The notes below the pieces were generated by a model, which saw only the letters and a program-made list of their open reading frames with translations, was not told where the DNA came from and did no database searches. The position numbers and the translations under genes were made by a program. Of a stretch of DNA of 64,000 bases, positions 16,465 through 39,900 are shown one piece after another (within the stretch, counting starts at the first letter, position 1; every line of letters begins with the position of its first letter). Origin of the DNA: an uncultured delta proteobacterium (lineage in GTDB: Bacteria; Desulfobacterota; Syntrophia; Syntrophales; UBA2185). The stretch lies in assembly GCA_963695875.1 (NCBI GenBank), contig CAVOID010000005.1, positions 150,484 to 214,483 of the forward strand. Reading direction: 5' to 3'.

Positions 16465-16680
16465 TTAGGTTTTCTCTTTCTTTAGCTTTTCAATTTCTTC
16501 CTTGAGTTCCCGCATCTCCTTCCTCAATTCATCCACTTCATCGTAGCTCCTGCCACGGCAAAAGAATCCGCGGCCACCGAAGAACTGGGCGAGAACGAAA
16601 AGTACCACAATCATGAAAATCAGGCCCATCAACGGAAACATGAACCATCCACCCCACATCGGAGGACCATTCCACCACAT
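16465..16680 (-). CDS. Small Trp-rich single-pass membrane protein with C-terminal coiled coil
   Basis: AAGGAGG RBS; TM segment, GGRGFFC, ELRKEMRELKEE; paralog at 38711-38936. Confidence 0.75.
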   Translation of the reverse strand: MWWNGPPMWGGWFMFPLMGLIFMIVVLFVLAQFFGGRGFFCRGRSYDEVDELRKEMRELKEEIEKLKKEKT

Positions 16681-16709
16681 ATTATTTCACCTCCTTGAGC
16701 CAATACCGC

Positions 16710-16738
16710 ATAAACGGGGGCCACATGGGAAAGATGCC
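16710..16738 (-). promoter_or_regulatory. Candidate ECF-sigma promoter
   Basis: GGCATC-N16-CGTTTA, 30 nt upstream of ATG 16680; matches the motif at 39871-39900. Confidence 0.5.
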
Positions 16739-16814
16739 TATCTTCCCTTGAGCTCCTCAATAGGTTTTTCGTCATACATATAATAAGATTTCATTTACAT
16801 AAACATTCACTTAT

Positions 16815-16843
16815 AAATTAAGCTTCGTATAATTGAGTGTCAA
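16815..16843 (-). promoter_or_regulatory. Candidate sigma70 promoter
   Basis: TTGACA-N17-TAATTT on the minus strand. Confidence 0.4.
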
Positions 16844-16944
16844 GAAGAACTTTGACAGAAGAATTTTACAGATGTCAGACAGGTTTGAAAAGGGGTCAGC
16901 AAGCACAAACCCAACAAATGGAACCGGGCGCCTTTCCAGTCCGC

Positions 16945-19900
16945 TTATTCTTCGACTGCGAGGCTCAATTGTCCGTCTAAAGTTCGTGACCGTGGCACCT
17001 TCGGGGCTTCTCGTGCAGAAGCCGGCACAGGGGGAAGTTCCGACGCGGTGAAAAGCTCACTATCAAGAACGGCTTCAAGAAGCCGTTTCTGTTTCGCATA
17101 CCCTGCCGTTGTATGCTCCAGGACCCAGAGCAATTCCAGAAGTTCTCGTGGTAAACTCGCGTGTCCAGACGCGAGGCCGGATATCGTCAAGGGGCGATGA
17201 CTTTCTTCCCGCTCCGCTCCCTCATGCGATAGCCCAGCCATGACTGCAATACTTTCAGACCCGATACTTCAAACTCCCATACCTCGAGACGACACCGGGG
17301 CAAAAACGCCGTCGCCGACATAGAGCTTCTTGCCGGTGTCTTCATAATAAAATTCATTCGGATACTTGTCTTCCTGATCGGAAACGGCCTTTATGCATTG
17401 AGCCTTGCCCTTCGGTATCTGTCCTGCCGGATGGTCGGCGTCGTGCAATCGTTCGCCATAGGTATGCAGCCAGATCAATTCTTTGCCGAACTCCGATACC
17501 TTCGCAAAGAGTTTTTTGTCTTTCGTCAGAGGAACGCGCACTTCCTTGCTTGCAAGCTCGTCTGAGCAAATCGCCGCGTATATTCAGGCTGGGCCAAAAC
17601 ACCGTAAACATAACCAGCAAAATCTTCCGGCGTTACTGTTCGGCCAAATGATGTGCTTAGCATGTCCAAGCAAGCCAGGCAATATGTTCGGCTGTAGTGC
17701 ATTCGCGTCACGATAAAGTGGCATGATCTCTTTAGCTCCAACTGATCCGCGAAAATGATGAAGGTCAGGGATATTTGCACTACACATGTCATTGCTGGAC
17801 CATCGCCAAGTGGATGATTGAACATAGCTTGATAGATATATTTGCTCGTTCACCATGTGCACCTGCCATAGCGGCGGGTCGCGGGCGTCGAAATCAGCGA
17901 TCATCAGCAAGCAATATACTGTCGATCAAAAGAACGATAATGCATATCTGAACGATTTTATGTATTGGTTCATCTTGAGCCAATAACTTTATTGCGCTTG
18001 AGTTCTATACTCATCGTCAAATATGGTCTGCTGCTTCAAAGCAATTGTTCTGATCGCCGACTCTCCTTCATAGAGTTCTGCACGATTCAGTAGACCTCGA
18101 GGAGCGCCTTCCAACGACTCTTCCAGAACATCTTTCGATGGTGCCACTGGCCAAGTACGTTTAGCTTTGAACACCGTTATTTTGCCACGGAAACAAATCT
18201 GTAAAGCTCGGCCACTCGTGCAAAGTCACTTGTTGACAACAGGTCTGAACGGCGCCTGCCAATCATCCGGGTACAGATCTCCCATTTCAGAGCACTACTC
18301 GATTTTACAGAATCAAGGGCTTCGAGCTTTTTCTCTCGTGTCCCTTCAATGCGCGTATATCGGACAACAGCCGGAGTATCGGGATTCGGCTTTGCTTTGC
18401 GCCACGCCACGAAGATTGCCACCGGCGTCTGAATGGCAAAGACATTTTCATCCTTCCGTGTCCCGCGTCCTTCCCCTCCCAGGTCGATGATATCTATATG
18501 ATCGCAGATCCTGCGCATGTGCTCGCGGACGCCGACAAAGGCGTCACCGTCGAGATAGGACGATGCGGTGATGAAGGACAGGATGCCGGGGCCTGTAGCG
18601 GTCTTGTGCTCGAATACTTTCCAGAGGGACCAGCGGATGAAATAGACATAGAGGTTGTAAAGGTTCTTGAGATGGACGCCATAACCGGCTGTGCGGGCAG
18701 GTTTCAAGAAATCTTCAAGAATCGCAGAAGCTTCGTATTTCTCATCACCATAACGCACCCAGCCGCCGGTGATTGCCTTATTATCTCCGCTGCTCGCTTC
18801 ATGCCGACCATAGGGCGGATTACCGAGACACACAAGGACATGTTCTGCGTCCTTGATCTTGAGCGCCCGTTCGTGTTCCTGCGCTATGGGCTTGTGAAAC
18901 AGCGGCGGCGCAGGCGGGTCGTGTGAGGAGATTCAAGGGTGTTCGTGAGATAGATACCAGGACCGGTGGAAGGCAGAGATGATGCCCTGCTTGCTTAGGG
19001 CCTGCGAGAAACGCAGTTGCGCGACGGCGTACGGGCCGACCATCCATTCAAAGCCGTGGAGGTTATGGACCAGCGAACGAGCGCCGCCTTTTACCGCTCC
19101 CGGGCCTTCCTCCTTTTCCACCCGTGCAAGGGCATGATCGACAATACCAAGAAGATAGGTTCCGGTTCCGACCGCCGGATCAAGCGTTGAAACTCCGGCC
19201 TCAACAAATCCCATATCTTTACCAAGGTGCTTTTGCAGGATTTCGTCTATCAGCCGCACCTGACAACGGACGACTTCAAGCGGAGTAAAGTAAATGCCCG
19301 CCTCTTTGCGTAATTTAGGATCGTAGCTTGCAAGAAAGTCCTCATAGAAAAAAAGCCACGGATCTTTTGTCGCCGATGTCGCCTTGAGCAGATCAGGTGG
19401 TATCTCGTGGATAACACGCTGTGTCATGCTGAGGGATGCGCTGATTTCCTTCCTTGCTTCCTTGTCGGTCAGGAATTCGAGCGATCGGGAAAGCAGCGAG
19501 TGATGATGTTCGAGCGTGTCGTAAGTCTTACGAAGGTCAAGAACATCCGCGCCTTCCATCTGCCCCAGCAGCAAGGCAAAGATGACCGTTTGGGCGTAGG
19601 CGTCGGCAAATTGCTCATCGTTTGCGTCAGGGAAAAGGAGCGCCTTGATCTCAGTCTTGAGCGAGTGCATGGGCGAGGCAGTATCTTCGAGAGAGTCCAA
19701 GACCTCCTCGCGGATAAGGCGGCAGAAGGGAGCAAGGAAAGCAGCAAGCTCTTTCGGCTTCCTCGGGTACAATCGGCGTCCAGGTCGTAAAATCAGCAAA
19801 GAGCTGAAAAAGGTCTCTCGCGTTTGCTTCTGAGACAGCGTCCTTTCTGTCTGTGCGGATGTCTCCTGCAAAGCGGATGCGCTTTGCGAACAAGTCTCCA

Positions 19901-20289
19901 TTCCGGTATAACGCCCATTCGTTGCCGTCGGTATAGATAAGGTTTGGTACGTTCCGGAAACGTTTCCACTGGTCCCTGTCATGTCCCTTGAAAAGCTCCG
20001 GGTTCGCTCCCTTTCCGGGCGCCTTCAATTCAATGTAGCCGACAGGCAGGGTATCAATATGAGCCGCGAAATCAGGACGGCCCAACCTGCTGTGAAGGGT
20101 TGACTCTCCTTTCAGAACGATATTGCGGGAAACGATTTTGCCGTAAGCGGCGAAAAGCTGGTCAACGGGAGATTTGAGCTGATCTTCCGGCTCGCCGGAC
20201 GACCTCGCTGAAAACTTGGCCGTCAGCGATTGGGCAAAGACCTGCAAAGGCGCGTACATCTTTTCTTGTGGCGTAATGTTCTTGGGCAT
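16945..20289 (-). pseudogene. Single-polypeptide restriction-modification enzyme (type IIG/ISP-like N6-adenine MTase), multiply frameshifted
   Basis: Collinear fragments: RPDF...YIELKAPG nuclease motif, GIYFTP, LDPAVGTGTY (motif I), GNPPY (motif IV), LKNLYNLYVYF, and C-terminal specificity-domain pieces (ELIWLHTYGER, ELLELLWVLE). Confidence 0.85.
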
Positions 20290-20434
20290 TATCTCACAAT
20301 CAGGAACGTTATTATGGGCTAATCTATGTTATTCCGTATAACTTGTCAATCGGGTGAGTCGAAAAGCTCAAGTGGTTGTTATCATTCAAATTGAAAAAGA
20401 CACTACCCACATTCAATAGAGTATAATCTTGTGT

Positions 20435-20481
20435 GGATACTTATTAGCCAACTGGATAGCATAACTGGATACTTATTATCC
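20435..20481 (+). promoter_or_regulatory. Two palindromic sites, candidate enhancer (UAS) for a sigma54 activator
   Basis: GGATA-CTTAT-TAGCC (20435) and GGATA-CTTAT-TATCC (20467), 32 bp apart, about 90-135 bp upstream of the sigma54 promoter. Confidence 0.6.
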
Positions 20482-20570
20482 GCTTTAGGACAGACGAAAG
20501 ATGGTCATGGATGGTAGATGTATTGCAATTATTGTTTCATTTTAATTGCTTAAATCACATATGAGATGGC

Positions 20571-20586
20571 TGGCACAGCCCTTGCT
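20571..20586 (+). promoter_or_regulatory. Sigma54 -24/-12 promoter
   Basis: TGGCAC-AGCCC-TTGCT, an exact consensus match. Confidence 0.85.
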
Positions 20587-20628
20587 CTATAAAAAAGCAA
20601 AACAAATAATCTAAAGGAGAATAAAACC

Positions 20629-21129
20629 ATGAAAAAAATAATAATGACGTTAGTCACAGTGATTATTGTGACAGCTTTTGCGGTCTCCGCGTTTGCCTTC
20701 GGTCCCGGCTCGGGGAGGGGTCACGGTGGTGGGCCTTATGATGGTTATGACCCAGCAGTCCTTTCGCAATTGAACCTGACCGCGGATCAGACCACTAAAA
20801 TCAATGCCTTTCGAGAGGCATTCTTGAAGGATACCAAACCGCTGCAGGATAAAATGTTCAGCAAACGGGGCGACTTGAAGCTCCTCTGGTTGCAGCAGAA
20901 TCCCGACCAGGAGAAGATCCTCGCCGTGCAGAAAGAGATCAGGGCCTTGAGGGATCAGATTCAGGAAAAGAGAGATGTCTATCGGCTTAACGTTTACAAT
21001 GTACTTACTCCGGAACAGAAGGAAAAGTTAAAGTCCTACGGACCGGGTCGCGGTTTCGGCCACGGCATGAGGGGTGGTGCTGGGTATCCCGGCGGTGGCC
21101 CTGGCACGGGCATGAGAGGCAACCAGTAA
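20629..21129 (+). CDS. Spy/CpxP/ZraP-family periplasmic chaperone/metal sensor
   Basis: Signal peptide, two LTxxQ motifs (LTADQ, LTPEQ), Gly-rich flanks. Confidence 0.85.
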   Translation: MKKIIMTLVTVIIVTAFAVSAFAFGPGSGRGHGGGPYDGYDPAVLSQLNLTADQTTKINAFREAFLKDTKPLQDKMFSKRGDLKLLWLQQNPDQEKILAVQKEIRALRDQIQEKRDVYRLNVYNVLTPEQKEKLKSYGPGRGFGHGMRGGAGYPGGGPGTGMRGNQ

Positions 21130-21150
21130 AGATACATCATACCAAAGAGT

Positions 21151-21182
21151 AGTGCCTCGGCTTTTGTAAATTCCGAGGCACT
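21151..21182 (+). other. Stem-loop after the ZraP-like gene
   Basis: 10-bp inverted repeat AGTGCCTCGG...CCGAGGCACT with no U-tract. Confidence 0.5.
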
Positions 21183-21283
21183 CTGCCTTGACCAAAGGAA
21201 AGAAAGTGAGAAATCAGACCTGGACATTTTTGATAGATGGGATTAGTCTTCACGACAAAAAAACAACCCTACTGAGGCTTGCC

Positions 21284-22087
21284 ATGGCTGGCTTTCCAAT
21301 AAAAAATATCCTGTCTAAAAGCTTCAAGTTGATGTGGCCGGCCATGGTTGTTCTTCTGTTGACGCTTTTCATCTCAGCTTTTTTCACAAAATTTATCTTC
21401 GTAACCGGCATAGTGTCATTTTGGAAAATTCTTCTTCGTTTTTTTCGCCTTACCCTTATCCTAACTCTTCCCATACTCTTTCTTCCTTATGTCAGTATGG
21501 TCATGCAGAATCTTCTGAATCGGGGAAACTATCGCTTAATCCAGATACGTGAGGAGAGAAGTCATGAGTTTAACCGCTGGCAAAGTTGGTTAGTTCGGCC
21601 ATTGCAGTGCATCGGGCTGGCGATGTTGATTGCGGCAAAGTTTATCACAGTTTTGCAAATCTACACGGGGAATACAATTACCGCCGCAACCATCCTTCCA
21701 TCTGGTCAATTTAATCCAGCAAGATTTTTGAGCACCACGGCCATTGCCATGACGACGTCATTGCTGCTTTCTTTCCTCTGGACGTTGGATGATCTGGGAA
21801 TTCGGTATTCCAACACGAAGACGGGGGAAGTCAGAATGATAGGAAAGTATATTGGCATACTGCTGCCAATCATATTTGGCTTTTACGGTATGTTCAGCCT
21901 GTTTGAAAGTCACGAACGCTTATTGGCGGTCCAGTATATTTTCCAGATGATCATCGTTCTCTATCCTCCATTCGTCGTTATGACCGTACTCAACTTTCTT
22001 TATATCGAAAAGTACGAAACCATTTTACTGGAAAAATTAAAGATAGACTCTCGGTTGGTGTTAATGGATAAACAAGAAGTCAGTTAA
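21284..22087 (+). CDS. Hypothetical multi-pass membrane protein
   Basis: Long ORF with about 6 hydrophobic segments; GAGG precedes ATG 21284. Confidence 0.6.
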   Translation: MAGFPIKNILSKSFKLMWPAMVVLLLTLFISAFFTKFIFVTGIVSFWKILLRFFRLTLILTLPILFLPYVSMVMQNLLNRGNYRLIQIREERSHEFNRWQSWLVRPLQCIGLAMLIAAKFITVLQIYTGNTITAATILPSGQFNPARFLSTTAIAMTTSLLLSFLWTLDDLGIRYSNTKTGEVRMIGKYIGILLPIIFGFYGMFSLFESHERLLAVQYIFQMIIVLYPPFVVMTVLNFLYIEKYETILLEKLKIDSRLVLMDKQEVS

Positions 22088-22280
22088 TGAAAAAAATAAA
22101 AAAACCCAGTGTGCCTTTAGCTTCAAGTATAAGATACTGGAATAAGGTGGTAGCTGGCACCTGCCATTGTTTTGTCATTTAGTCATCATTGTGTTCCGCT
22201 ATTAAGAGCATTAATTTGTCGACAGTAAAGAAGTGGCGCTGCCAAGAATGTAGAGCAGCATCTGTGGAAAGGAGAAAGAT

Positions 22281-22985
22281 ATGGAATTGATCGTCGCGGA
22301 AAATATATCTAAAGATTACCAGGTTGGCGAGGTTGTCATACATGCCTTGAAGGATGTCAGTTTTGAAATTGAGCCGGCATCTTTTGTTTCCTTTGTTGGG
22401 CCTTCAGGAAGTGGCAAAACAACCCTTCTGAACCTGATCGGTTGCCTGGATAAACCCACGGAAGGGAAGTTAACGGTTGCAGGCACTGACATTTCCATGC
22501 TCGATCGAAAAGAGAGCGCCGCCTTTCGGGGAAATCACATCGGCTTCATTTTTCAGGATTTTAATCTAATACCCGTTCTCACGGTATACGAAAACATTGA
22601 ATACCCTCTCCTCATGGTTCAAAATGTGCCGGCCACAGAAAGGAGCGACAGGATTCATGGGCTGCTCAAAGCCGTCGACATGCTCGATCAGAAGGACAAA
22701 TACCCGGATCAGATCTCAGGCGGCCAGAAACAGCGGGTGGCGATCGCCAGGGCGCTTGTGACGAATCCAAAACTTGTCCTGGCTGATGAACCTACGGCCA
22801 ATCTCGATTCTCAGACTGCCCATGCCGTCATTGAACTCATGAAGAAGATGAAAGATGAACTCAAGACGACATTTATTTTTTCTACTCATGATCAGAAGAT
22901 CGTGGGGGAGGCAGAGACTGTTTTCACTCTCGGGGATGGTGAATTGATGGATCATAAAGTGAAGGGAGGGATAAAAAATGGGTAA
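22281..22985 (+). CDS. ABC transporter ATP-binding protein (LolD/MacB-like)
   Basis: GPSGSGKT, ISGGQKQR, LADEPT. Confidence 0.95.
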   Translation: MELIVAENISKDYQVGEVVIHALKDVSFEIEPASFVSFVGPSGSGKTTLLNLIGCLDKPTEGKLTVAGTDISMLDRKESAAFRGNHIGFIFQDFNLIPVLTVYENIEYPLLMVQNVPATERSDRIHGLLKAVDMLDQKDKYPDQISGGQKQRVAIARALVTNPKLVLADEPTANLDSQTAHAVIELMKKMKDELKTTFIFSTHDQKIVGEAETVFTLGDGELMDHKVKGGIKNG

Positions 22986-24216
22986 CCTCTTTAAAATTGC
23001 AGTCCGAAACCTCTTGCGATACAAGAGACGGACATTCCTCACAGCATCTCTTATCACCATCGGGGTGATTTTTGTCCTTGTCTTTATCTCCGTTTCCGGT
23101 TCTTTTAAAGCAATGATGATCAGCCAGATAACGGACTCAATGCTGGGACATATCCAGATACATAAAAAGGGATATGTAGCCGCCATTGACAATTTGCCCC
23201 TCAATTTGAATCTCAGGCCACAGGCTGTTGCAAAAATCGAAGATATCCTCAATAATGATGTCGACGTGGAATCATATTCCCCACGGATCAAGTTCGGAGG
23301 GATGTTCAGTAATTTTATAGAAACAACAAATATCCGTCTCAACGGCGTTTATCCGGATCGAGAATTTAAGACAATCCCTCTGCTTGCGTCAAGGATCAGT
23401 GCCGGCAAACAATCCATTGAAAAAGGAGGAATCCTTATCCCTGTCCTGCTGTCAAAAGGGATGGGCGTCAAGATCGGAGATACCGTGGTGATTGTGACTA
23501 CCAATAAAGATGGGTCGGTTAACGGAAAACAATTTACAGTCTCCGGCATCCTCGAAAGCGCCACCGGACCGGGTGGAAGAGATGGTTACGTTCATATCGA
23601 AGACGCCCAGGAACTTCTGAGAATGACGGAGATGGAGATAAGCGAGGTGGCAATCCGTCTCAAGGATTTCGACAGGCTCCATTCTGCCGATCTCAAGCTT
23701 CAAAATCTCCTGGCAGGAGAGTTAAATCAGCAGGGGAAACCCATTTTCGAAATTCACACATGGGAAAAGCTCTCCCCATTTTATCATCTTTCCAGAATGA
23801 TTGATCTGATGACATTCTTTATTAAGCTCATGCTCATCGCCATTGTCCTCATCAGCATCATGAACGTGATGATCATGGCGGTCTATGAAAGAATCCGGGA
23901 GATTGGTACAATTGCAGCTATCGGCACGCCTCCGAAGAAGATCCTTTCCATGTTTGTGATCGAAGGGTTCTGTCTCGGGATTTTTGGTACCGTTGTAGGA
24001 AATATTTTCGGAGCTGTAATTATTTATATAATCAACGCGTCAAAGATTACTTTTGACTTTGCGATGCACCAGGGATTAATTTTGTCGGCCAATATCAGGT
24101 CCTCAGATATAATCTCCATATCTGTCATAGTCATCATTGTCTCTGTGATTGCAAGCCTTCAGCCTGCTTTCAAAGCCTCGCGCATGGAACCGATCACAGC
24201 ATTGAGACATGTCTAA
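22978..24216 (+). CDS. FtsX/LolCE-like ABC permease
   Basis: ERIREIGTIAAIG and PAFKASRMEPITALR. Confidence 0.92.
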   Translation: MGNLFKIAVRNLLRYKRRTFLTASLITIGVIFVLVFISVSGSFKAMMISQITDSMLGHIQIHKKGYVAAIDNLPLNLNLRPQAVAKIEDILNNDVDVESYSPRIKFGGMFSNFIETTNIRLNGVYPDREFKTIPLLASRISAGKQSIEKGGILIPVLLSKGMGVKIGDTVVIVTTNKDGSVNGKQFTVSGILESATGPGGRDGYVHIEDAQELLRMTEMEISEVAIRLKDFDRLHSADLKLQNLLAGELNQQGKPIFEIHTWEKLSPFYHLSRMIDLMTFFIKLMLIAIVLISIMNVMIMAVYERIREIGTIAAIGTPPKKILSMFVIEGFCLGIFGTVVGNIFGAVIIYIINASKITFDFAMHQGLILSANIRSSDIISISVIVIIVSVIASLQPAFKASRMEPITALRHV

Positions 24217-24332
24217 AATTTATTGAGGTTGAAATTTATGAAGCTGAAATCTATTGCTCATGTTTTGGGTTTGGAAAGATGCCCAATGCGCCGGACTGTA
24301 ACCTGCGAACGTCTTACTCACGGAGGTCTGAC

Positions 24333-26364: not shown

Positions 26365-26505
26365 ATGCCAATAGTCAAAGGTCTGTTTGCATCCTTTTTC
26401 AGGCTTGGCCTGACTGCCTTCGGAGGCCCTGCAATGGTGGCGCATATCAGGGAACTTTCTACCGAGCGCCATCAATGGTTGGTGGTCTCAGGTTCAAGTA
26501 CATGA
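26365..26505 (+). pseudogene. 5' remnant of a chromate transporter gene
   Basis: LFASFFRLGLTAFGGPAMVAHIRELS closely matches the N-terminus of the gene at 27861. Confidence 0.75.
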
Positions 26506-27860: not shown

Positions 27861-29018
27861 TTGAACGGAAATCCCTCTATTAGATATCTCTTCCTGTCCT
27901 TCCTGCGACTCGGAATTACATCTTTCGGTGGCCCTGCAATGGTGGCTCATATCAGGGAACTCTCTATCCGACGCAATAGATGGCTGGACGAAGCCGATTT
28001 TAAAAACGGCATCGCCCTCTGCCAATCCATACCGGGCGCTACCGTCATGCAGGTAGCCGCGTATGTCGGGCTCAAAGTTCGGGGAATCTTCGGGGCATTA
28101 GCTGCCTATATAGGTTTCGGATTACCGGCTTTTATCCTGATGTTGATTCTCTCGGCTTTATATGCCCGATTCAACAGCCTTCCAAAGTTCATCTCTTTGT
28201 TTAATGGCCTTCAGGTGATCGTCGTTGCTATCATCTTTAACGCAGTCTTATCTTTTGGCAGGAATATCGTAAACGATTACAGGAGCATTATCGTTGCGCT
28301 TTTGTCTGCTCTCTTGTTCTGGCTGGGTATAAGTCCTTTTATAGTTATCGTTGGAGCCGGAATTCTTGGCATGAAGTTGTTTAGAATATCCGCCTCAAGC
28401 ACAGCAGTCAATTCCGAAACAAAGGAAACAAAGTGGCATACCAAGCGAATCATTGTTCTCTTGGTCACTTTTTTTATCTGTCTTACCGGGCTGTATTTCG
28501 TAAACTCCACACTCTTTAGTATAGCGGCGGTCATGCTCAAAATAGACCTCTTCGCCTTCGGTGGCGGGTTTGCCTCTCTTCCGCTCATGCTTCACGAGGT
28601 TGTAATTAACAGGGGATGGCTGGACAGCAAGACCTTTATGGACGGAATAGCCCTCGGCCAGGTGACACCGGGCCCCATCGTTATTACAGCGGCCTTTGTG
28701 GGATATTTGGTCTATGGGATTCTCGGTGCGATTGTTGCGGCAATCGCTATATTTACACCTTCATTCTTCCTTTTGGTTACCATTGCACCATTTTTTGATC
28801 GTCTGAAGAATTCCGTATATTTTATGAGGGCGATAGATGGCATTTTCGCATCCTTCGCAGGACTTCTCTTATATGTTTGTATCAAATTCGCGGTGACTGT
28901 ACCGTGGGACATCGTAAGGATTTTATTGGTTCTTGCGGCATTAGCCGCCCTGCTTCGAAGGATAGACATACTTTATATAGTGCTGGGTGGGGCGCTTATT
29001 TCTATATTCTTTTTGTAA
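27861..29018 (+). CDS. chrA: Chromate efflux transporter (long-chain CHR)
   Basis: Two CHR repeats: SFGGP..CQSIPG and AFGGG..GQVTPGP. Confidence 0.93.
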   Translation: MNGNPSIRYLFLSFLRLGITSFGGPAMVAHIRELSIRRNRWLDEADFKNGIALCQSIPGATVMQVAAYVGLKVRGIFGALAAYIGFGLPAFILMLILSALYARFNSLPKFISLFNGLQVIVVAIIFNAVLSFGRNIVNDYRSIIVALLSALLFWLGISPFIVIVGAGILGMKLFRISASSTAVNSETKETKWHTKRIIVLLVTFFICLTGLYFVNSTLFSIAAVMLKIDLFAFGGGFASLPLMLHEVVINRGWLDSKTFMDGIALGQVTPGPIVITAAFVGYLVYGILGAIVAAIAIFTPSFFLLVTIAPFFDRLKNSVYFMRAIDGIFASFAGLLLYVCIKFAVTVPWDIVRILLVLAALAALLRRIDILYIVLGGALISIFFL

Positions 29019-29191: not shown

Positions 29192-29237
29192 TTGACAAAA
29201 ATAATATGACTACATATATTGCCTGTTAGCAATATAT
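29192..29237 (+). promoter_or_regulatory. Sigma70 promoter with overlapping ArsR-type operator
   Basis: TTGACA-N17-TATATT; the inverted repeat ATATATTGC-CTGTTA-GCAATATAT (29214-29237) overlaps the -10. Confidence 0.8.
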
Positions 29238-29244
29238 AGGAGCT

Positions 29245-31264: not shown

Positions 31265-31356
31265 GTAAAACCTTATTTACCCGGCAAGCCTCGAAACCCT
31301 GTCTCCTCAGGAGCCTAGAAAAGCATTAGCAAGACACTGCACAAAAGGAGGAAGGT

Positions 31357-31500
31357 ATGTACGAAAAAGTTGTTATTGTTTCGGATCTTTCCGAGGCTAC
31401 AAGCCATGTAATCAACTGCGTCCAGGATCTCAAGAAAATGGGAACGAAAGATGTCATTCTTTTCCATGCGCGAGATTTCGCTGATAATGAGGTGGAATAG
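31357..31500 (+). pseudogene. Truncated universal stress protein (N-terminus only)
   Basis: GGAGG RBS; MYEKVVIVSDLSE...VILFHA, then a stop after 47 aa. Confidence 0.6.
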
Positions 31501-31503
31501 CAC

Positions 31504-32553
31504 ATGGCGATAGCAGCAATGCGGTCGTACTTGGTTCATCATTTTAAGAAATGGTGGGAACTCGAGTGGATGCCCTGGCTTGATTGGATACAGCTTGAGG
31601 TTACCTCGCGGTGTAACGCTACCTGTACATACTGTCCGAGAACCGTCTATCACTCTCAATGGGAGAGCAGGGATATTTCCCTCGATACCTTCGAGAGGCT
31701 TTTACCTGTTTTCACCAAGACGAAGATGGTGCATCTGCAGGGGTGGGGCGAACCGTTGCTGTATAAGCACTTTTTTGACATCGTCGCCCGTGTAAAAAAA
31801 GCAGGATGCGAGGTGGGTATGACCACAAATGGGATGCTGCTCAACCGCCAAGAAATCAACAGGCTAGTCGCTAGCGGCATCGACCATGTTGCGTTCTCCT
31901 TGACCGGTATCGGTGAGAAGAACGACACCGTCCGAAAAGGGACAGACTTCAGAAAGATACTTCAGGCCATCTCCGATCTCAATGCTGAGAAAAAAGCCCT
32001 TCACGTCGAAACCCCGATGGTCAACGTGGCTTATCTGCTTCTCCGTTCTCACCTGTCAGACATCGACGATATCGTCCCAATGATTGCGGGACTTGGGATA
32101 CAACACTTGATCATCAGTACCCTTGATTTCGTCCCGAGCAAAGACCTCCAGAAGGAGCAACTTATGCCACGGGACGAGAGGGAATACCGCGAAATGAAAT
32201 CCTTCCTGGATAGACTGGTGATGGCAGGTAAACAAGCAGGGGTCAGTATCTCTTACCGCCTGGTCTCCCCGGGAAAGAGAAACAGGACCTGCACGGAGAA
32301 CGCCGAGCGAAGCCTGTTTGTGTCAGCAGACGGGACTGTCTCGCCGTGTGTATTCATGAATATCCCTGCCTCTGAAGCATTCCATACGGTACGGGGGTGT
32401 GAGCATGAATACCGCCAGCTCACTTTCGGCACAGTGGCCGAGACATCGACGCCGGCCATCTGGTTGAGCAGGCGCTACACTACGTTCAGAGATTCCTTTG
32501 ATTCGGCGCTTCACCCCTTCTGTCAGGAATGCCCGAAGCTCTATGAGTCCTGA
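31504..32553 (+). CDS. Radical SAM protein with SPASM/twitch domain
   Basis: CNATCTYC, GWGEPL, TTNG, DGTVSPC, terminal CQEC. Confidence 0.9.
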   Translation: MAIAAMRSYLVHHFKKWWELEWMPWLDWIQLEVTSRCNATCTYCPRTVYHSQWESRDISLDTFERLLPVFTKTKMVHLQGWGEPLLYKHFFDIVARVKKAGCEVGMTTNGMLLNRQEINRLVASGIDHVAFSLTGIGEKNDTVRKGTDFRKILQAISDLNAEKKALHVETPMVNVAYLLLRSHLSDIDDIVPMIAGLGIQHLIISTLDFVPSKDLQKEQLMPRDEREYREMKSFLDRLVMAGKQAGVSISYRLVSPGKRNRTCTENAERSLFVSADGTVSPCVFMNIPASEAFHTVRGCEHEYRQLTFGTVAETSTPAIWLSRRYTTFRDSFDSALHPFCQECPKLYES

Positions 32554-32678
32554 GATAGCGATGAAGAAAGGGAAAATAGTTGTGAGTGAAACATGGTGTC
32601 CGGCGAACGATCATGAGAGACAGGCTGATTGAGCATCGGTTTTTTAACGTTCTGAATAATACAGTTGAGGTTTTATCT

Positions 32679-33066
32679 ATGAGTGTAAAACGAGTTTCAG
32701 CGATTATCACTGTAATCCTTTCCATCCTTTTATTCGTCGCTGCGGTTGCGCCATCTTTTTCTGCCGAGTTTAAAAACATCCCCGTAGCAGGGCATGGTGA
32801 CTATGGTGGACCTGGGAGCAACTAAATGCATTCCCTGCAAGATGATGGCCCCCATCCTTAAAAAACTGGAAAATCGTTATGCGGGAAAGGCGGCTATTGT
32901 TTTCCTGGACGTGTGGGAAGACCCAAAGCCGGCGTACCACTTTGGAATTCGGATCATACCTACACAGATTTTCTTCAATAAAAGAGGAGAAGAAGTGTAT
33001 CGCCACGAAGGTTTCATGAGCGAGGAGGAGATCGTGGCCATCCTACAGAAATTGGGTGTGACCTGA
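32679..33066 (+). CDS. Exported thioredoxin-family protein; +1 frameshift near 32791
   Basis: The signal-peptide ORF joins the CIPC thioredoxin ORF (IPVAG/MVTMVDLG) if one G is removed. Confidence 0.8.
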
Positions 33067-33071
33067 GGGAG

Positions 33072-33786
33072 ATGAGCATGCTGGAGACGTTTTTTATTAC
33101 GGTGAATCAATGGCTCACAGGGTCACCCCTGCTGGCTTCTGCGGGAAGCTTCCTCTGGGGGATGATCAGCGTCCTGTTCAGCCCCTGCCATCTGGCCTCG
33201 ATTCCCTTGATCGTCGCCTATGTAGGGGGACAGGAAGCGGCTCTGAAACCCCGGCAGGCTGCACATTACGCCATCGCTTTTACCCTTGGCCTGTTTATCA
33301 CCATCGCTGTGATCGGCATTGTCTGCGCCTTCCTGGGCCGGATGTTAGGCGACGTCGGGAATTACTGGCAGATACTGGTTGGCCTGATCCTTTTCTGGGT
33401 CGCCCTGGGCATGATGGGGGTTGAAGCATGCTCCGCCTCCGGCAGCCTTCTCTACCGTCTCAACCTGCGGGGGATATGGGGTGCCTTTGGACTGGGTCTG
33501 GCTTATGGTGTGCTGTCCGGCTCCTGCACGTTCGGCTTCATCGCGCCCATTCTTGGCGATCATTACCATTCAGCAGAAAGTGACCATCGGCATCCTTTTC
33601 ATCACGCTGTTTGCCCTCGGTCACTGCCTTCCCATCGTGATAGCGGGCAGTTCCACGGCCATGGTGAGAAAACTGATCGAAAATCAGACCTGGCAGGGGG
33701 CGGGTTTGTGGTTCCGCAAAGGCGCCGGGGCACTCATCGCTGTTTTGGGGATCTATTTTATCGGCAATCCTTTTTGGGGAAATTAA
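33072..33786 (+). CDS. ccdA: CcdA/DsbD-type membrane disulfide transporter; +1 frameshift near 33556
   Basis: FSPCHLASIP and SCTFGF; the TM helices continue in the frame that ends at 33786. Confidence 0.82.
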
Positions 33787-34041
33787 ATGAAAGAAAAGAT
33801 CATGATCTACGGAACAGACACCTGACCCTTCTGCAACCAGGCTCGGGCAGCCTACGGCGACAGGGCCATCTATATCAATGTCAATGAAGACCCGAAGAGA
33901 CTTGAGGAAATGCTGGTCTATTCTGGCGGCAAGATGCAGGTACCCGTGATTGTGGAAGGCAACAAGGTCTCTGTCGGTTTCGCCGGGGATATTTCCCTGC
34001 GCGGTGGCATCCCCATTTTCGGAGGCACCTGACCGGTGAAA
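33787..34041 (+). CDS. Glutaredoxin-like selenoprotein (Uxx-star-like) with two in-frame UGA codons; exact stop uncertain
   Basis: MKEKIMIYGTDT-U-PFC...QVPVIV...GF...FGGT-U-PV. UGA codons at 33823 and 34030, each followed by a hairpin. As assembled, the next in-frame TAA is at 34111. Confidence 0.8.
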
Positions 34042-34105
34042 CGGCCCCTCGGTGAGGGGGAAAAAAGCAGAAAAACAAATATATTCAGGAAGGAGGCTTA
34101 TTTGC

Positions 34106-34882
34106 ATGTTTAAATCCATCGGTTTTATCGGGGGCGGAAGGGTTGCCAGGATTATCCTGGGCGGTTTGGAACGGAAGAAGAAGTGGCCCGGCAAGGTGAT
34201 CGTCAGCGACGCCAATGCCGATGTTCTGAAAGATCTGCAAAAGCGATTCCCGAAGATTGAGGCGGCAGGTGATGATCCTAAGAAACCCGCTGCCACCGAT
34301 GTGGTTTTCCTTGCCCTCCATCCACCGGCGATCATGGGAATTCTCGGCGAAGTGAAATCAAAGCTCCGCCGGGACGCGATTGTCGTTTCCCTGGCCCCGA
34401 AAGTATCCATCTCTCAGATTTCCGGTGGACTTGACGGATTTTCCCGTATCGTCCGGATGATTCCCAATGCGCCGGCGGTCGTGAATAAAGGATTCAATCC
34501 GCTGGCGTTCTCCGCCGTATTTCCAAAGGACGAGAAGAAAAAACTGCGCACATGGTTCAATGTCCTGGGAGACTGCCCCGAAGTGGCGGAAGAAAAACTG
34601 GAAGCCTACGCCGTGATCACCGCCATGGGACCGACTTATTTCTGGTTCCAGTTCTATGAACTGGAGGAACTGGGAAAGACCTTCGGTATGACCCCGAAAG
34701 AGGCAAAAGAAGGTCTGGCGAAAATGATGAAGGGCGCTCTCAAGACCATGACCGATTCCGGTTTGTCCCCCAGCGAGGTTATGGATCTGATCCCCGTAAA
34801 ACCCCTCGGTGAGGAAGAGGCAAACATCCGGAACATTTATCGCACAAAGCTCCAGGGATTGTACAGCAAACTGAAAGGATAA
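34106..34882 (+). CDS. Pyrroline-5-carboxylate reductase-like NAD(P)-dependent oxidoreductase
   Basis: GFIGGGR Rossmann motif, RMIPN, AMGPTY; AGGAGG RBS. Confidence 0.8.
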
Positions 34883-34902
34883 ATCATAATAAAGGGTGCA
34901 CC

Positions 34903-35217
34903 ATGAATCCTTCCGATCAGGATCCCTACATGATTCTTGGCCTCTCACCGGGTGCAACGGAAAAACGGAGCAAGAAGGCCTATCGCCGTCTTGCTATGAG
35001 ATTTCATCCGGACAAAAACCAGGATGATCCTGAAGCTGAAAAAAAATTCAAAGAAATACAATGGGCATACGAGAGCCTCCGGAGAAACAAAAGGCCTCAG
35101 TCTGTTCCACCGGATGCCGCCCCGCAAGAGCACCCATTATCTGATTCCACAGATCCGTTTTTCAACTTCTTCACGGCTTTGAGATCGCATTACACGAAGA
35201 AGAAAGATGGTAAATGA
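34903..35217 (+). CDS. Small J-domain protein
   Basis: DPYMILGL...HPDKN...FKEIQWAYE. Confidence 0.85.
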
Positions 35218-35282
35218 GGTTCATCGGATGGCTTCCGTGGCTTACACACAAGTAAAAAAGGTAGATCATGTAGGAGTGATAT

Positions 35283-35711
35283 ATGTCTGTGCCGACAGAA
35301 AAGAAAAGAGTGCTGTTCATCTGCACTCATAACGCTGCCCGCTCCCAGATGGCCGAGGGTCTTCTTCGTGCCCTTCACGGGGACCGTTATGAAGTCTTCA
35401 GCGCCGGCACGGAACCGGACAGGGTGAGCCCGTACGCAATCAGGGTGATGGATGAAATCGGAATAGATATCAGTAATCACCGATCCAAGAATGTGACTGA
35501 ATTCCTGGATCAGAAATTCGACTATGTGGTTCCTGTTTGTGATAGTGCGAACGAGTCCTGCCCCTATTTCCCCGGCGGCAAAAAAATCCTTCACCAGAGC
35601 TTTGAAGATCCTTCCGCCCTGACCGGGACAAAAGAGGAAATCACGGCAGGTTTTCGACGCATCCGCGATGAAATCAGGAGCTGGATAGAATATGAATTCA
35701 TCAAATTGTAA
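35283..35711 (+). CDS. arsC: Thioredoxin-coupled arsenate reductase (LMW-PTP fold)
   Basis: CTHNAARSQMAE P-loop, VCD...CP, FEDP. Confidence 0.9.
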   Translation: MSVPTEKKRVLFICTHNAARSQMAEGLLRALHGDRYEVFSAGTEPDRVSPYAIRVMDEIGIDISNHRSKNVTEFLDQKFDYVVPVCDSANESCPYFPGGKKILHQSFEDPSALTGTKEEITAGFRRIRDEIRSWIEYEFIKL

Positions 35712-35741
35712 TTGAAAAAAATAAGCAGAAAGGATGGATAT

Positions 35742-36835
35742 ATGTCAGATGGTATTGTGAAGAGGTTGTCGTTTCTTGATCGGTTTCTGACTATCTGGAT
35801 TTTTTTGGCGATAGGAGCGGGAATCGCAATCGGTTTTTTTCTCCCGGGAGTATCAACCTTCATTACCGGCATGCAGGTTGGTACAACATCCATCCCTATT
35901 GCTATCGGGCTGATTTTGATGATGTACCCACCATTGGCCAAGGTGAAGTACGAGGAGATGGGCAAGGTATTCCGTCATAAGCGTCTGCTCTGGCATATCG
36001 CTGCTGCAGAACTGGGTCATCGGACCTCTCCTCATGTTTATTCTGCGCCATCATCTTTCTGCGGGACTACCCGGAGTACATGATAGGCGTCATCCTCGTG
36101 GGCCTGGCGCGCTGCATCGCCATGGTGATCGTGTGGAACGAACTGGCCGAGGGCGACCGTGAGCTCGCCGTTGGCCTGGTGGCCTTCAATGCAGTCTTCC
36201 AGGTTCTCTTCTATGCCGTATACATTTTTGTATTCATAACCATCGGCCTCAACTATCTTGGCCTGGTCAAGGGGCTGAACGTGAGCATCTCCATCGCAGA
36301 GGCTGCCAAGACCGTGTTCATCTACCTGGGCATCCCGTTTATCGCAGGGGTCGTCACCCGGTTCAGCCTGCTCAGGGCCAAAGGCAAAGAATGGTATGAG
36401 AACGTTTTTACTCCGACAATCAGCCCGCTGACACTCATTGCCCTTCTCTTCACCATTATCGTCATGTTCTCACTCAAAGGACAATACATCGTACAGCTTC
36501 CACTGGATGTTGTTCGCATAGCTATTCCGCTTACGATCTACTTCTTCCTTATGTGGTTCTCGACCTTCATCATCGCTTACAAGATCCGGGCAAATTATGC
36601 GCAGACCGCCACAGTCTCCTTTACTGCGGCGAGTAATGACTTCGAGCTGGCCATCGCTGTTGCCGTTGCCATCTTCGGGATCCACTCCGACCAGGCCTTT
36701 GCAACGGTCATCGGCCCCTTGCTGGAGGTGCCCGTGCTCATCAGCTTGGTGAACGTCGCCATGTGGCTGCGAAAGAAGTACTTTCCCCACGCTGTAGAGA
36801 CAGCGGAAGGGATCTGCTACCTCAGTTGTAAATGA
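35742..36835 (+). CDS. acr3: Acr3 arsenite efflux transporter; two +1 frameshifts near 35991 and 36046
   Basis: LDRFLTIWI and MMYPPL; the intervening frame reads LLQNWVIGP; then [25 protein letters not shown]. Confidence 0.92.
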
Positions 36836-37009
36836 ATGTTTTTGAAGAAGAGGAAGAAAATGGCAACTTGAATCTTCTTGGTATAGACATTATGAAATGT
36901 AAGGCTAAATAGGTGAAGAAACTTCTGATCGTCGAGGAAGCGATGCGGGTATCAGTGCCAGTTCTGAGGGCCAGGGAAATTGATCTGGATATGAATGTGA
37001 CCGTGTCAG

Positions 37010-37108
37010 GTATTCGTTACGGTCATAGGGCATTTGATTGAAGTGCCGGTGCTTATCATGCTCGTGAACGTGGCCCTTAATTTCAAGAAGAAATTCTTTA
37101 CAGCTTAA
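37010..37108 (+). pseudogene. 3' remnant of a second acr3
   Basis: FVTVIGHLIEVPVLIMLVNVALNFKKKFF* parallels the C-terminus of the upstream Acr3. Confidence 0.75.
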
Positions 37109-37142
37109 AAAATGAAGTAAAATAATTTATGGAGGAAGTAAG

Positions 37143-37580
37143 ATGGCAAAAATGAAAACAATCGGTATTGAGGCAAAGTTGGATGAAAAGTTTAAGATTG
37201 AAGTAAAAGCAGGCGATCATGTCATGTATGTCGACCAGACGAAGGCAGGCGGCGGGACTGATGCGGGCGCGACCCCCCTTGAGTATTTTTTCGCGTCTCT
37301 TGCAGGCTGCATCGGCACAGTATCAAGAATCGTCGCCAATCAGAAGAGAATCAAATTGAACGGCATGGACATAAAAGTCGAAGGTGCATTCGATCTGGAG
37401 ACGTTGCTGGGCAAGAGCAAGGAAAACAGAGCCGGGTTTACCGGTATAAAAGTTACTTTAAATATTGACTCGGACATGTCGAAGGAGGAAAAGGAAGCGT
37501 TTGTTCATGAAGTGGAGAGCAGGTGCCCTGTTTCAGATAATATTACCTGCACGACTCCTGTAGTAGTTGAAATCGTTTGA
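37143..37580 (+). CDS. OsmC family protein
   Basis: GGTDAGATPLE...LAGC and RCPVSD. Confidence 0.9.
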   Translation: MAKMKTIGIEAKLDEKFKIEVKAGDHVMYVDQTKAGGGTDAGATPLEYFFASLAGCIGTVSRIVANQKRIKLNGMDIKVEGAFDLETLLGKSKENRAGFTGIKVTLNIDSDMSKEEKEAFVHEVESRCPVSDNITCTTPVVVEIV

Positions 37581-37595
37581 AATTATTCAGGCAAT

Positions 37596-37712
37596 ATTGA
37601 AGCTCTCCGCAGTAACTGCGGAGAATCTTCGATCCACAAGGAATAATGATGTTCCCCATTCGCTCGCTTACCCCGCAGCAAGCTACGGGGAATGCGCTCG
37701 CTGCCGGATTCA
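37596..37712. repeat. Two-hairpin miniature element of about 117 bp, copy 1
   Basis: Highly similar to 49473..49590; TGAA...TTCA ends. Confidence 0.85.
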
Positions 37713-37771
37713 CTAGAGCGATTTTTCCGGCGGTTGGAGGTTTTTCTTCAACCGCCCTTTTTAACTTTCCA

Positions 37772-38407
37772 TCAATCTTCACTCTTGAAACCGGCTTTCA
37801 TTTCTCCGATCTGGATGAAAGGGGTTTTCCGGTCGCACGCGAACTCATTGCGCTCGTCGCGGTAGAAGACGCAGGCGGTTTTCAATTCTTCTTTGAGCCT
37901 TGTGCGGGCACGGTGCAACCGGATCTTGGTCGCCTGAAGACCTAATCCAAGGATGTCGGCGATTTCCGCGTCTTTAAATCCTTCCAGCTCGCTGAGGATA
38001 ATGACGGATCTGTAGCTTTCTGGCAGAGTTTCGATTATTTCGCGGATGCAGCCGTTCATTTCCTGACGAATAACCCGCTCCTCGGTGGACGGGGTTCGTT
38101 CACCCGTCCAGATTTCTTTATCTTCTTCACTTTCCTCGATGTCCTCTATGTTCATTTGCTTTTCATATCCGGGAAGACTGGAGGAACGGCGCAGTCTATC
38201 CATGGCGACATTTGTCGCAATCTTATAGACCCAGGTAGACAGCTTAGATTCGCCACGGAATGATTTCAAGGCCCGGCTGATCCTGGCAAACACCTCCTGA
38301 GTTAAATCTTCCGCCTCCCCTTCTCCGACCATGCGTGTCAGGTATCGCAGAATCCTGGGGCGAAAATCGTCGTGGACTTTCTGAAAATCAAATTCACAAT
38401 CAGCCAT
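37772..38407 (-). CDS. ECF RNA polymerase sigma factor with Cys-containing C-terminal extension
   Basis: AEDLTQEVF, STWVYKIATN, KIRLHRAR; tail CVFYRDERNEFACD. Confidence 0.92.
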   Translation of the reverse strand: MADCEFDFQKVHDDFRPRILRYLTRMVGEGEAEDLTQEVFARISRALKSFRGESKLSTWVYKIATNVAMDRLRRSSSLPGYEKQMNIEDIEESEEDKEIWTGERTPSTEERVIRQEMNGCIREIIETLPESYRSVIILSELEGFKDAEIADILGLGLQATKIRLHRARTRLKEELKTACVFYRDERNEFACDRKTPFIQIGEMKAGFKSED

Positions 38408-38444
38408 GTCTATGCTCTCGTAGCTTATTAAATATCACGTCTGG

Positions 38445-38705
38445 CTATGAACAGCAACTGCACTTCTCTGTTTCCGGAGACTTAAGGGGAAGCCTGTTCC
38501 CGATAAGCTTCAAGGCGAGTTTGTCCATGCTGGATGCAGCCCCCTGCCTGACTCCATTGGCAATATTGACAGCCTCCATAATTTCATCACAGCCAATTCC
38601 TGCCTCCAGCGCTTTGCTAACAGTATATTCCAGGCAGGGGTGACAATTCGCCCCCACTGATGCTCCCACGGCAATCAATTTTTTCACTCGGTCATCCATG
38701 TGCAT
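38445..38705 (-). CDS. CMD/AhpD-like protein
   Basis: LIAVGASVGANCHPCLEY; C-terminal CSCCS. Confidence 0.82.
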   Translation of the reverse strand: MHMDDRVKKLIAVGASVGANCHPCLEYTVSKALEAGIGCDEIMEAVNIANGVRQGAASSMDKLALKLIGNRLPLKSPETEKCSCCS

Positions 38706-38710
38706 TTTCC

Positions 38711-38936
38711 TTATCTTCCTTTTATTTTGCTGAACTCTTCTTTCAGTTCCCTGATTTCTTTTTTCATCTCTTCAAGATCAGTGGGATGGGTGCTGCCCCA
38801 ACAGCAGAAACGCCCACCGGCAAATCTCGATCTGAAAAAGAGGCACATAATTATGCACAATGCTAGAAGGATTATCGGTACCACCCACCACCAGGCCCAC
38901 ACGGGCCACGAGGCAGTTTCCATACCACCAGCACAT
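38711..38936 (-). CDS. Small Trp-rich membrane protein with coiled coil; probable frameshift near 38918
   Basis: GGAGG RBS precedes ATG 38936 (MCWWYG) in a different frame from the body (TM, GGRFCC, EMKKEIRELKEE). Confidence 0.68.
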
Positions 38937-39035
38937 ATCTTTTATTCCTCCTTGTTATTTTCGATCTCATCTTTGCAGTTACAAGTATACATCAACCGCC
39001 TGTTTCGATAGTTTCTGCGCACTTGACAGATGAGA

Positions 39036-39230
39036 TCATTCCATCTTGCTGCCACAGAAAGACTTCATCTTTTCCATCATAGCCTTCTTATCCTCTTCAG
39101 ACATATCCTTCATGTTACTGCATGGGCACATCGCGGTCATCTTCTCAAAACAGGCCTTCATTTTATTCTTATCCTCCTCTGCCATGCTGCTGAAAAACCC
39201 TTGCATCATTGGACCAAACATCTTTTCCAT
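39036..39230 (-). CDS. Small Met/Cys-rich protein with internal repeat
   Basis: AGGAGG RBS; repeats MAEEDKNKM / MSEEDKKAM. May extend to 38992 if a base is missing near 39040. Confidence 0.7.
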   Translation of the reverse strand: MEKMFGPMMQGFFSSMAEEDKNKMKACFEKMTAMCPCSNMKDMSEEDKKAMMEKMKSFCGSKME

Positions 39231-39312
39231 TTCGTGCCTCCTTATAATTTACTAACTTATGAACCCTTTTGTCACAAATACGCTCTATACGATCGCCTTT
39301 TCCATAAACCGC

Positions 39313-39843
39313 CTATTTTGAACACCCGGTGCACCCACATGCGGCAACGTTTTCTTCGGCTGCTTTCCCTTGTTCCATATCGGCAAGGACTTTGTCCGCG
39401 ACCTGCCGGGCCACCTTTTTTCGCTCTTCTTCGGGTACGTCATCGATATCGAAGATATCCGTGTATTTGTTGTATACCGACAGGGCATCGAACTGGGCGA
39501 TCTTATCCTCATCGAGCAGATTTTTAAGAATCCTGCCGTGGCAATGGAGAAAACACCCATCTATGACCACGACCTTCTCCGCTTCGTTCATCCATCCAGC
39601 GATGGCAGACGTGGGAACTGTGAACATCTCCCCGTGGCAACCGCGGCGGTAAGGTTCTTCCTTCGCAACCAGATTAGCGGCAAGGCGGGCGATTTCCCCA
39701 CGTATACAGGCACCTTCACAGGAAATCACAGGGATTTTCCCCTCATTCCGATTTTGATTACCCACGCGTTCCCCCATGGCACAGACACCCTTCGTTCCAT
39801 CAACAACGATTGAAAATTGCTTCTTTGATTTCTCCATTGTCAT
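39313..39843 (-). CDS. DGC-domain putative zinc-binding protein
   Basis: SCEGACIRGE and IDGCFLHC; AAAGGAG RBS; tail CGCTGC. Confidence 0.85.
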   Translation of the reverse strand: MTMEKSKKQFSIVVDGTKGVCAMGERVGNQNRNEGKIPVISCEGACIRGEIARLAANLVAKEEPYRRGCHGEMFTVPTSAIAGWMNEAEKVVVIDGCFLHCHGRILKNLLDEDKIAQFDALSVYNKYTDIFDIDDVPEEERKKVARQVADKVLADMEQGKAAEENVAACGCTGCSK

Positions 39844-39870
39844 TCTTCTCCTTTGCCTCTTTTTATTCCT

Positions 39871-39900
39871 ATAGACGGAAAAAGAACAAAAAAAGATACA
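39871..39900 (-). promoter_or_regulatory. Candidate autoregulatory ECF-sigma promoter
   Basis: TGTATC-N17-CGTCTA, 28 nt upstream of the first gene of the operon that encodes the ECF sigma. Confidence 0.6.

Follow-up and report, generated by a model that had tools for sequence, protein, structure and literature searches.

Two operons on the minus strand of one stretch of syntroph DNA, about 22 kb apart, stand behind similar upstream motifs, and this raises the question of whether a single regulator controls both. The stretch (the window; 64,000 nucleotides, nt) comes from an uncultured delta proteobacterium of the Syntrophales. One operon ends in the gene for an extracytoplasmic function (ECF) sigma factor; the other encodes a small membrane protein, TM1, and a corrinoid protein resembling MtrA, with a TGA codon in its reading frame. 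The original prediction was that the sigma factor transcribes both as one thiol and metal stress system. The motif letters and positions on which it was built are correct, namely GCATCTTTCCCATGTGGCCCCCGTTTAT at 16737-16710 (28 nt; P1, before the MtrA-like operon) and GTATCTTTTTTTGTTCTTTTTCCGTCTAT at 39899-39871 (29 nt; P2, before the sigma operon), both on the minus strand. The distances to the first ATG, given as 30 and 28 nt, are correct if the end of the -10 hexamer is taken as the starting point; measured from the final T of the quoted motifs, they are 29 and 27 nt. Comparison of both sites across related genomes argues for two unrelated modules in one resistance island, with P1 a chance look-alike of P2, and we reject the joint regulon (probability of this reading about 0.85).

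The sigma factor and its probable promoter

The sigma operon comprises the following features.

39872 to 39900, minus strand: promoter P2, with TGTATC at 39900-39895, a 17-nt pyrimidine-rich spacer and CGTCTA at 39877-39872
39313 to 39843, minus strand: DGC-domain Cys-rich protein of 176 residues (PF08859, E 1.7e-13), first gene behind P2
39036 to 39230, minus strand: Met/Cys-rich protein of 64 residues, with no Pfam family
38711 to 38936, minus strand: TM2, a small Trp/Cys-rich membrane and coiled-coil protein (true start 38936)
38445 to 38705, minus strand: CMD/AhpD-like protein with CxxC, 86 residues (PF02627, E 3e-07; matches to AhpD-type NCBIfam models are weak and below cut-off)
37772 to 38407, minus strand: ECF sigma factor of 211 residues (Sigma70_r2 and r4_2) with a short C-terminal beta-hairpin extension

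The sigma loci compared (n = 38) came from 300 genomes of the order; the best 30 sigma matches were fetched and one duplicate was dropped (L008, a duplicate of L014; L and G with a number are working labels for fetched loci and genomes, G000 being the source genome, and X1-X4 denote public sequencing runs). When all 4-mer pairs at fixed spacing were counted, GTAT...CGTC ranked first, being present in 34 of the 38 loci. Exact GTATC/CGTCTA sites numbered 35, with a spacer of 17 nt in 34 and of 16 nt in one (L006); a T precedes the -35 element in 31 of them, a T-run follows it, and only two one-mismatch sites were seen in these loci. The promoter heads the sigma-containing operon in 27 of the 38 loci. 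The same site as P2 is found in L002, L003, L179 and others, and the DGC gene is again first behind the promoter in these three and in L195. Elsewhere the first gene is the Met/Cys-rich one (eight scored loci), TM2 (six loci), CMD, a tandem CMD or OsmC. Since the motif is kept while the first gene changes, it follows the sigma factor and not any one gene.

A scoring matrix was trained on 35 sites of other genomes, none from the source genome (83% complete, 16 contigs, 2.86 Mb). P2 scored 35.6 bits, ranking first of 5,714,566 genome positions and lying within the 28-39 bits of true sites. A second site on another contig (G000:C9:169512) scored 35.0 bits, and the next genome score was 17.6. This second site lies 54 nt before a 180-residue tandem CMD/AhpD-like gene with CxxC (L266:892-1431, minus strand). 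Tandem CMD-like homologues are the first genes of the sigma operon in L012 and L197-L201; the homologue in L255 is separate and has a site to itself. The bare pattern GTATC-N16/17-CGTCTA occurs 0-6 times per genome, as against 0-6 for a reversed control, so flanks and position are needed for site calls. In one genome (G109), a Met/Cys-rich gene is preceded by a 31-bit site although no sigma factor was found at E 1e-35. In the source genome, the OsmC gene at 37143, whose counterpart is a target in six related loci, had no site among the top 25 genome scores.

Sixteen held-out loci of other orders gave a similar picture. Where sigma identity was at least 45%, all eight loci carried a site with a 17-nt spacer and 22-36 bits (five exact, three with one change), and seven of the eight more distant loci carried GTAAC-N17-CGTC. 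The GTAAC form in distant sigma factors shows that the promoter varies along with the sigma subgroup. Taken together, this conserved consensus makes P2 very probably the sigma factor's own promoter, as originally proposed, heading the DGC, Met/Cys-rich, small membrane, CMD and sigma genes.

The sigma factor itself consists of sigma2 and sigma4 domains plus a short tail, and its best NCBIfam match is SigZ (TIGR02959; 115.8 bits, below the cut-off of 168.65). Three cysteines (C120, C179 and C191) are invariant in 35/35 aligned rows, and the tail is modelled, with moderate confidence, as a two-strand hairpin holding C179 and C191. A sister sigma clade (L061, L275-L280, L283; 32-38% identity, same three cysteines) carries GTAAC-N17-CGTC(T/A), and forms a natural pair for mapping the residues that set the promoter letters. 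No anti-sigma gene was recognisable in the window, the small upstream proteins not having been examined as inhibitors. This, together with the three invariant cysteines, makes direct activation most likely, as in CorE. The sigma factor would recognise TGTATC-N17-CGTCTA and transcribe its own five-gene operon and the distant tandem CMD-like gene (G000:C9:169512). We regard it as an even bet, by analogy, that a thiol-reactive metal, metalloid or oxidant switches it on directly, and that self-amplification and the production of small thiol-rich binding or repair proteins would follow.

The look-alike site before the MtrA-like operon

The features of the MtrA-like operon are as follows.

16815 to 16857, minus strand: sigma70-like promoter, TTGACA-N17-TAATTT at 16843-16815, overlapped by the inverted repeat TGTCAA-N8-TTGACA
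16710 to 16737, minus strand: look-alike site P1, GCATC-N16-CGTTTA, with a G before the -35 element
16465 to 16680, minus strand: TM1, a small membrane and coiled-coil protein of 71 residues, preceding the MtrA-like gene
15315 to 16461, minus strand: MtrA-like corrinoid protein (PF04208, PF14251), with TGA at 16230-16228 and an extra base at 16136-16137
16195 to 16212, minus strand: SECIS-like hairpin, beginning 18 nt past the TGA's first base

P1 departs from the consensus in three respects: its -35 element is GCATC and not GTATC, its -10 element is CGTTTA and not CGTCTA, and its spacer is 16 and not 17 nt. GCATC is absent from all 35 training sites and from the 16 held-out best sites, and none of these 16 has CGTT or a 16-nt spacer either. 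The 1-nt spacer difference had been noted to fall in homopolymer runs; the spacer length is tightly kept, at 17 nt in all but one of the 35 true sites. P1 scored 0.3 bits (rank 630 of 5,714,566), and 547 genome positions match the consensus as well as it does (at most one mismatch per box, spacer 16-17 nt). A strict joint pattern of P1 and P2 has just two hits in the genome (0.026 expected), namely P1 and P2 themselves, but it was from these two sites that the pattern was derived. A looser genome scan returns the third site at G000:C9:169512, which is far nearer to P2 than P1 is.

Near-identical populations lack the -10 element of P1. Three bases at 16712 (the TTT of the box) are left out in the contigs of 4/4 public runs, from four studies (X1-X4); in X1 the omission is present at 19.4 of 28.7 depth, the remainder being a contig with a different indel there. 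At P1, the motif is therefore not conserved in near-identical populations, an outcome named with the original prediction as one that would refute it, and this, together with the wider survey of MtrA-like loci, speaks against control of this operon by the sigma factor. Of 160 such loci, 147 had 200 nt or more of upstream sequence, and none of these scored above 13.3 bits in the 3 kb before the gene. In six orthologous operons with TM1 followed by the MtrA-like gene (L019, L035, L107, L108, L119, L170), TM1 begins ~30-35 nt after a cation-efflux gene (6/6), and this close spacing leaves no room for a P1-type motif.

Nor do the two genes keep company elsewhere. An ECF match lies in the locus of only 2 of 109 MtrA groups. 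Of 300 genomes of the order, 44 have the sigma factor, 11 the MtrA-like gene and three both (1.6 expected, p 0.21, the genomes being kin and not independent). In those three the genes are on different contigs, and no exact site was found on the MtrA contig (in G175, the 10 kb surrounding the gene reach at most 2.4 bits). L061 has a distant sigma gene 4 kb away; its sites follow the MtrA gene and are placed ahead of CMD and behind sigma.

The paralogy of the two small membrane proteins, a further argument for linkage, stands in part. TM1 and TM2 are homologous (44% identity over 48 residues, pairwise E 1e-10), and they form two separate subfamilies of 9 and 20 rows with 99/99 support, the TM2 clade coming from ECF loci. 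Near the eight other rows of the TM1 clade, no site above 10 bits was found. The TM2 gene of the window carries one extra base near 38916 relative to 3/3 aligned relatives; neither this base nor the one in the MtrA-like gene had been noted originally.

Three other accounts of P1 were weighed. It is very unlikely that P1 is a weak or newly gained regulon member in this strain, through which the sigma factor also drives the MtrA-like operon. Nine of its 11 core bases match, it has the -35-proximal T-run, the strict joint pattern is unique to the two sites, one true site has a 16-nt spacer and both operons lie in the same island; but its score and rank, the 547 equally good sites by mismatch count, the -10 element broken in all four runs, the 147 siteless MtrA-like loci and the lack of co-occurrence weigh more heavily. 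The homology of TM1 and TM2, with TM2 first behind the promoter in six loci, would also suit a decayed relic, carried along when an ancestral TM1 of the ECF regulon moved before the MtrA-like gene. This we find most unlikely, as the split between the two proteins is deep, the remaining TM1-clade rows are without sites, and the -10 element owes its resemblance to bases missing from near relatives, the reverse of decay.

The third account takes 16689-16757 for a cis element in its own right, either an RNA leader or another factor's promoter, that travels with TM1 and resembles P2 only as a by-product; it appears quite unlikely. In X1, this segment and the 3' end of TM1 (16465-16470) join other flanks at several times the depth of the MtrA gene, which suggests that TM1 and its leader occur in other settings. 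Within it GGGAAGAT-AGGC-ATCTTTCCC forms a hairpin that places the variable bases in a loop. However, the leader folds no better than shuffles (z -0.30 and 0.26), and an Rfam search of 14500-18000 gave no match at the P1 stretch (one chance eukaryotic match fell elsewhere). The stretch had no match in five chosen genomes or in plasmids; matches in 338 other genomes of the order began no earlier than the ribosome site, and 400 genomes of the phylum gave only six matches of 19-31 nt (E 0.002-0.007). Besides its short hairpin, 16689-16757 holds a 13-codon frame ending in IEELKGR, like the TM2 tail.

Some observations count against the reading of two unrelated modules. Four of the 38 ECF loci have no site within the 1.5-kb flank, and in 7/34 the site follows the sigma gene and precedes OsmC, which means that not every locus is autoregulated. 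Weak members would escape the matrix, as its training set consisted of exact-match sites close to sigma genes. Three of the four runs are single contigs at depth 5-6, and the relatives' letters at P1 are inferred among 58 differences. P1 also lies at a plausible distance from its ATG, with a T-run after the -35 element as in true sites; such runs are a feature of several ECF promoter groups according to the part of PMC5758882 covered here. Finally, ~32 MtrA groups sit beside parA/parB without metal genes. Set against the evidence above, these points leave P1 judged a chance look-alike, which would have no -10 element but for three bases private to this assembly or strain.

TM1 and the MtrA-like gene would then be transcribed independently, probably from the sigma70-like site at 16843-16815, a likelier promoter than P1. 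A consensus sigma70 scanner did not list the 16843 site, whose -10 element matches at only 3/6 positions. Just upstream of the TGTCAA-N8-TTGACA repeat, which lies over the sigma70 -35 element, is TGACA-TC-TGTAA (16838-16880 in all); these repeats presumably resemble the boxes of metal-responsive response regulators.

The MtrA-like protein and its probable selenocysteine

The MtrA-like protein has a Cys/Sec-rich helical N-terminal domain (Sec, selenocysteine), an MtrA domain and a PterinBD-DUF4346 region, in that order. Its N- and C-terminal parts lie in one frame in 151/153 homologous loci, and the base at 16136-16137 that separates them here is absent from the 98%-identical L097 and from all four runs. 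The split is thus peculiar to this assembly or strain, and the frameshift is most likely an assembly error.

The TGA codon replaces Cys at the motif Y-x-C/U-x-G-C in 32/153 loci and 10/101 groups (L049, whose TGA is off the conserved site, was left out). In a FastTree phylogeny with midpoint root the Sec groups fall in two clades, eight with this protein and two from Sedimentibacter and Negativicutes. The codons CCG GCG GT in the hairpin (a candidate selenocysteine insertion sequence, SECIS) are present in 7/7 Sec groups versus 5/37 Cys groups, the Sec groups being kin and not independent. The genome encodes SelA and tRNA-Sec above cut-off, and SelB as two adjoining pieces below cut-off. With the TGA aligned to Cys and the SECIS-like hairpin downstream, the codon very probably specifies selenocysteine, as first suggested.

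A search of the Atlas with a Cys-bearing homologue returned only MtrA/DUF4346 clusters, and neither MtrA nor DUF4346 has an entry among all 119 families of Table 1 in the 2026 inventory (PMC13188914). The main text of PMC13326102 has no MtrA or DUF4346 term; its supplementary family list may bear on this. In the searched part of the literature nothing was found on a Sec form of MtrA. An MtrA-fold corrinoid protein with Sec is, on these sequence grounds, a probable new selenoprotein family.

A model of L097 superposes on MtrA-cobalamin (5laa) with a Z of 23.8 and a root-mean-square deviation of 1.8 over 153 residues, the N- and C-terminal domains being barely sampled by whole-model searches. 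H196 aligns with the cobalt-ligand His (His84 of MtrA in the covered part of PMC4915002), and the invariant Y124, T165-N167, G169 and N176 align with the pocket Tyr, Thr-Glu, Gly and Asn. Because the cobalamin site is kept, a soluble, methyl-carrying corrinoid protein is most likely. MtrA family models are matched below cut-off (NF002128, 385 against 568 bits; TIGR01111, 105 against 249 bits). The N-terminal domain may bind a metal or Fe-S centre, or accept a methyl group; the swap of Sec for Cys marks its probable reactive site, and the chemistry there is conjectural.

Among 109 MtrA groups, annotated neighbours include parA/parB (~32 groups), ArsR (12), P-type ATPase (8), cation efflux (6) and methyltransferase (5) genes, and no mtr genes were among the common annotated neighbours. 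In Nitrospirae (L059, L065-L069, L081-L092 and others) the Cys form has a constant place ahead of parA/parB, with a histidine kinase gene alongside, an arrangement like that of a housekeeping gene.

The resistance island and comparison with known systems

Between the operons lie broken type ISP restriction genes, an ABC exporter, a chromate transporter, ArsR, ArsP, thioredoxins, DsbD, ArsC, Acr3 and OsmC, so that the region is a mosaic metal and metalloid resistance island. Two of these genes border the operons directly.

16945 to 20289: type ISP restriction-modification gene, in fragments, immediately preceding the MtrA-like operon
37143: OsmC gene, convergent and downstream of the sigma gene

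Frame breaks occur in dsbD (33072-33887), acr3 (35712-36835), TM2 (38916) and the MtrA-like gene (16136), and selB is in two pieces (G000:C9:79843-81742); taken together, they are more readily put down to an assembly that looks indel-prone than to decay of the genes. Another OsmC gene (14720-15196) borders the MtrA operon, and in G015 (L008) it stands directly before the ECF promoter; the island thus seems to occupy the same site there, differing in its content and in the direction in which it lies. The start of the chromate transporter gene is present in two copies (26392-26482 and 27897-27987; 91 nt, 75% identity), and chrA and a PEMT/ICMT-like gene also flank the MtrA operon in L035, L107, L119 and L170. 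Just before arsR, the inverted repeat ATATATTGC-CTGTTA-GCAATATAT (29219-29244), which is not common to the MtrA operon leader, is a likely ArsR operator. Genomes of the Syntrophales/Syntrophaceae hold the nearest named relatives of both the sigma factor and the MtrA-like protein.

What is new here is a predicted two-site regulon of a three-cysteine ECF sigma factor and a probable selenoprotein family on the MtrA fold, for which signal and chemistry can be proposed by comparison. Like the MtrA-like protein, HgcA is a corrinoid protein with Cys/Sec variants in Desulfobacterota. HgcA has ArsR-type neighbours, as do 12 of the 109 MtrA groups, and a CFeSP-like corrinoid fold. The MtrA-like protein differs in having another corrinoid fold, no membrane domain, no HgcB-like partner that could be seen, and a Sec placed in a separate N-terminal domain and not at the cobalt. 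HgcA, which methylates mercury, is listed among selenoproteins (PMC13188914, Table 1). One speculative extension, which we consider unlikely, is that the MtrA-like protein uses its Cys/Sec domain to add methyl groups to, or take them from, a toxic metal or metalloid, as an HgcA analogue on an unrelated B12 fold; it would then share its island, and not its promoter, with a three-cysteine sigma factor that amplifies its own production and is itself the sensor of such ions.

Compared with MtrA of the methanogen Mtr complex (5laa, 5l8x; PMC4915002), the protein has the same fold and aligned cobalamin-pocket residues, but is bacterial, lacks the membrane anchor, and carries the extra Cys/Sec domain and the DUF4346 C-terminus. 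For bacterial stand-alone MtrA homologues we found no known job in print, and with this one the selenoproteome of sediment syntrophs gains a candidate family.

For the sigma factor, the nearest described systems are ECF238 and CorE. No paper on this lineage was found in the searched part of the literature, and the examined part of the PMC7826278 supplement has no group with this -35/-10 pair. As far as PMC7826278 was covered, ECF238, which includes SigZ of Bacillus subtilis and CorE2 of Myxococcus xanthus, is described with a short Cys-bearing extension, no anti-sigma factor, target motifs that are not conserved and no autoregulation, and the activating signal of SigZ is given there as an open question. 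The present sigma factor shares the short C-terminal extension, conserved cysteines and a metal-resistance neighbourhood, with ArsP-type permease, thioredoxin-like and acr3 genes in several sigma loci; no anti-sigma gene could be recognised in the window. By contrast, it has a fixed promoter ahead of its own operon in 27/38 loci, three cysteines (M-x2-C, C-x11-C) in place of a Cys-rich tract, no linker CxC and a score below the SigZ cut-off. CorE, in the covered parts of PMC4937300 and PMC8999054, has a 38-residue Cys-rich domain and a linker CXC, and is only partially self-regulated; CorE2 is not self-regulated. Activation through cysteines of the C-terminal extension, with no anti-sigma factor, is proposed for CorE (former ECF44) as here, whereas the linker CxC is absent from the alignment of this lineage. 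Judged from its sequence, the sigma factor is best described as belonging to a SigZ/CorE-like lineage in which three cysteines are invariant and the promoter is defined and for the most part autoregulatory; the autoregulation and CxC features set it apart. The defined promoter makes the activation of an ECF sigma factor apparently free of anti-sigma control directly addressable by reporter, and where SigZ/CorE-type sigma factors have been described without a conserved promoter, this lineage supplies an exact one, together with a putative two-site regulon and three cysteines.

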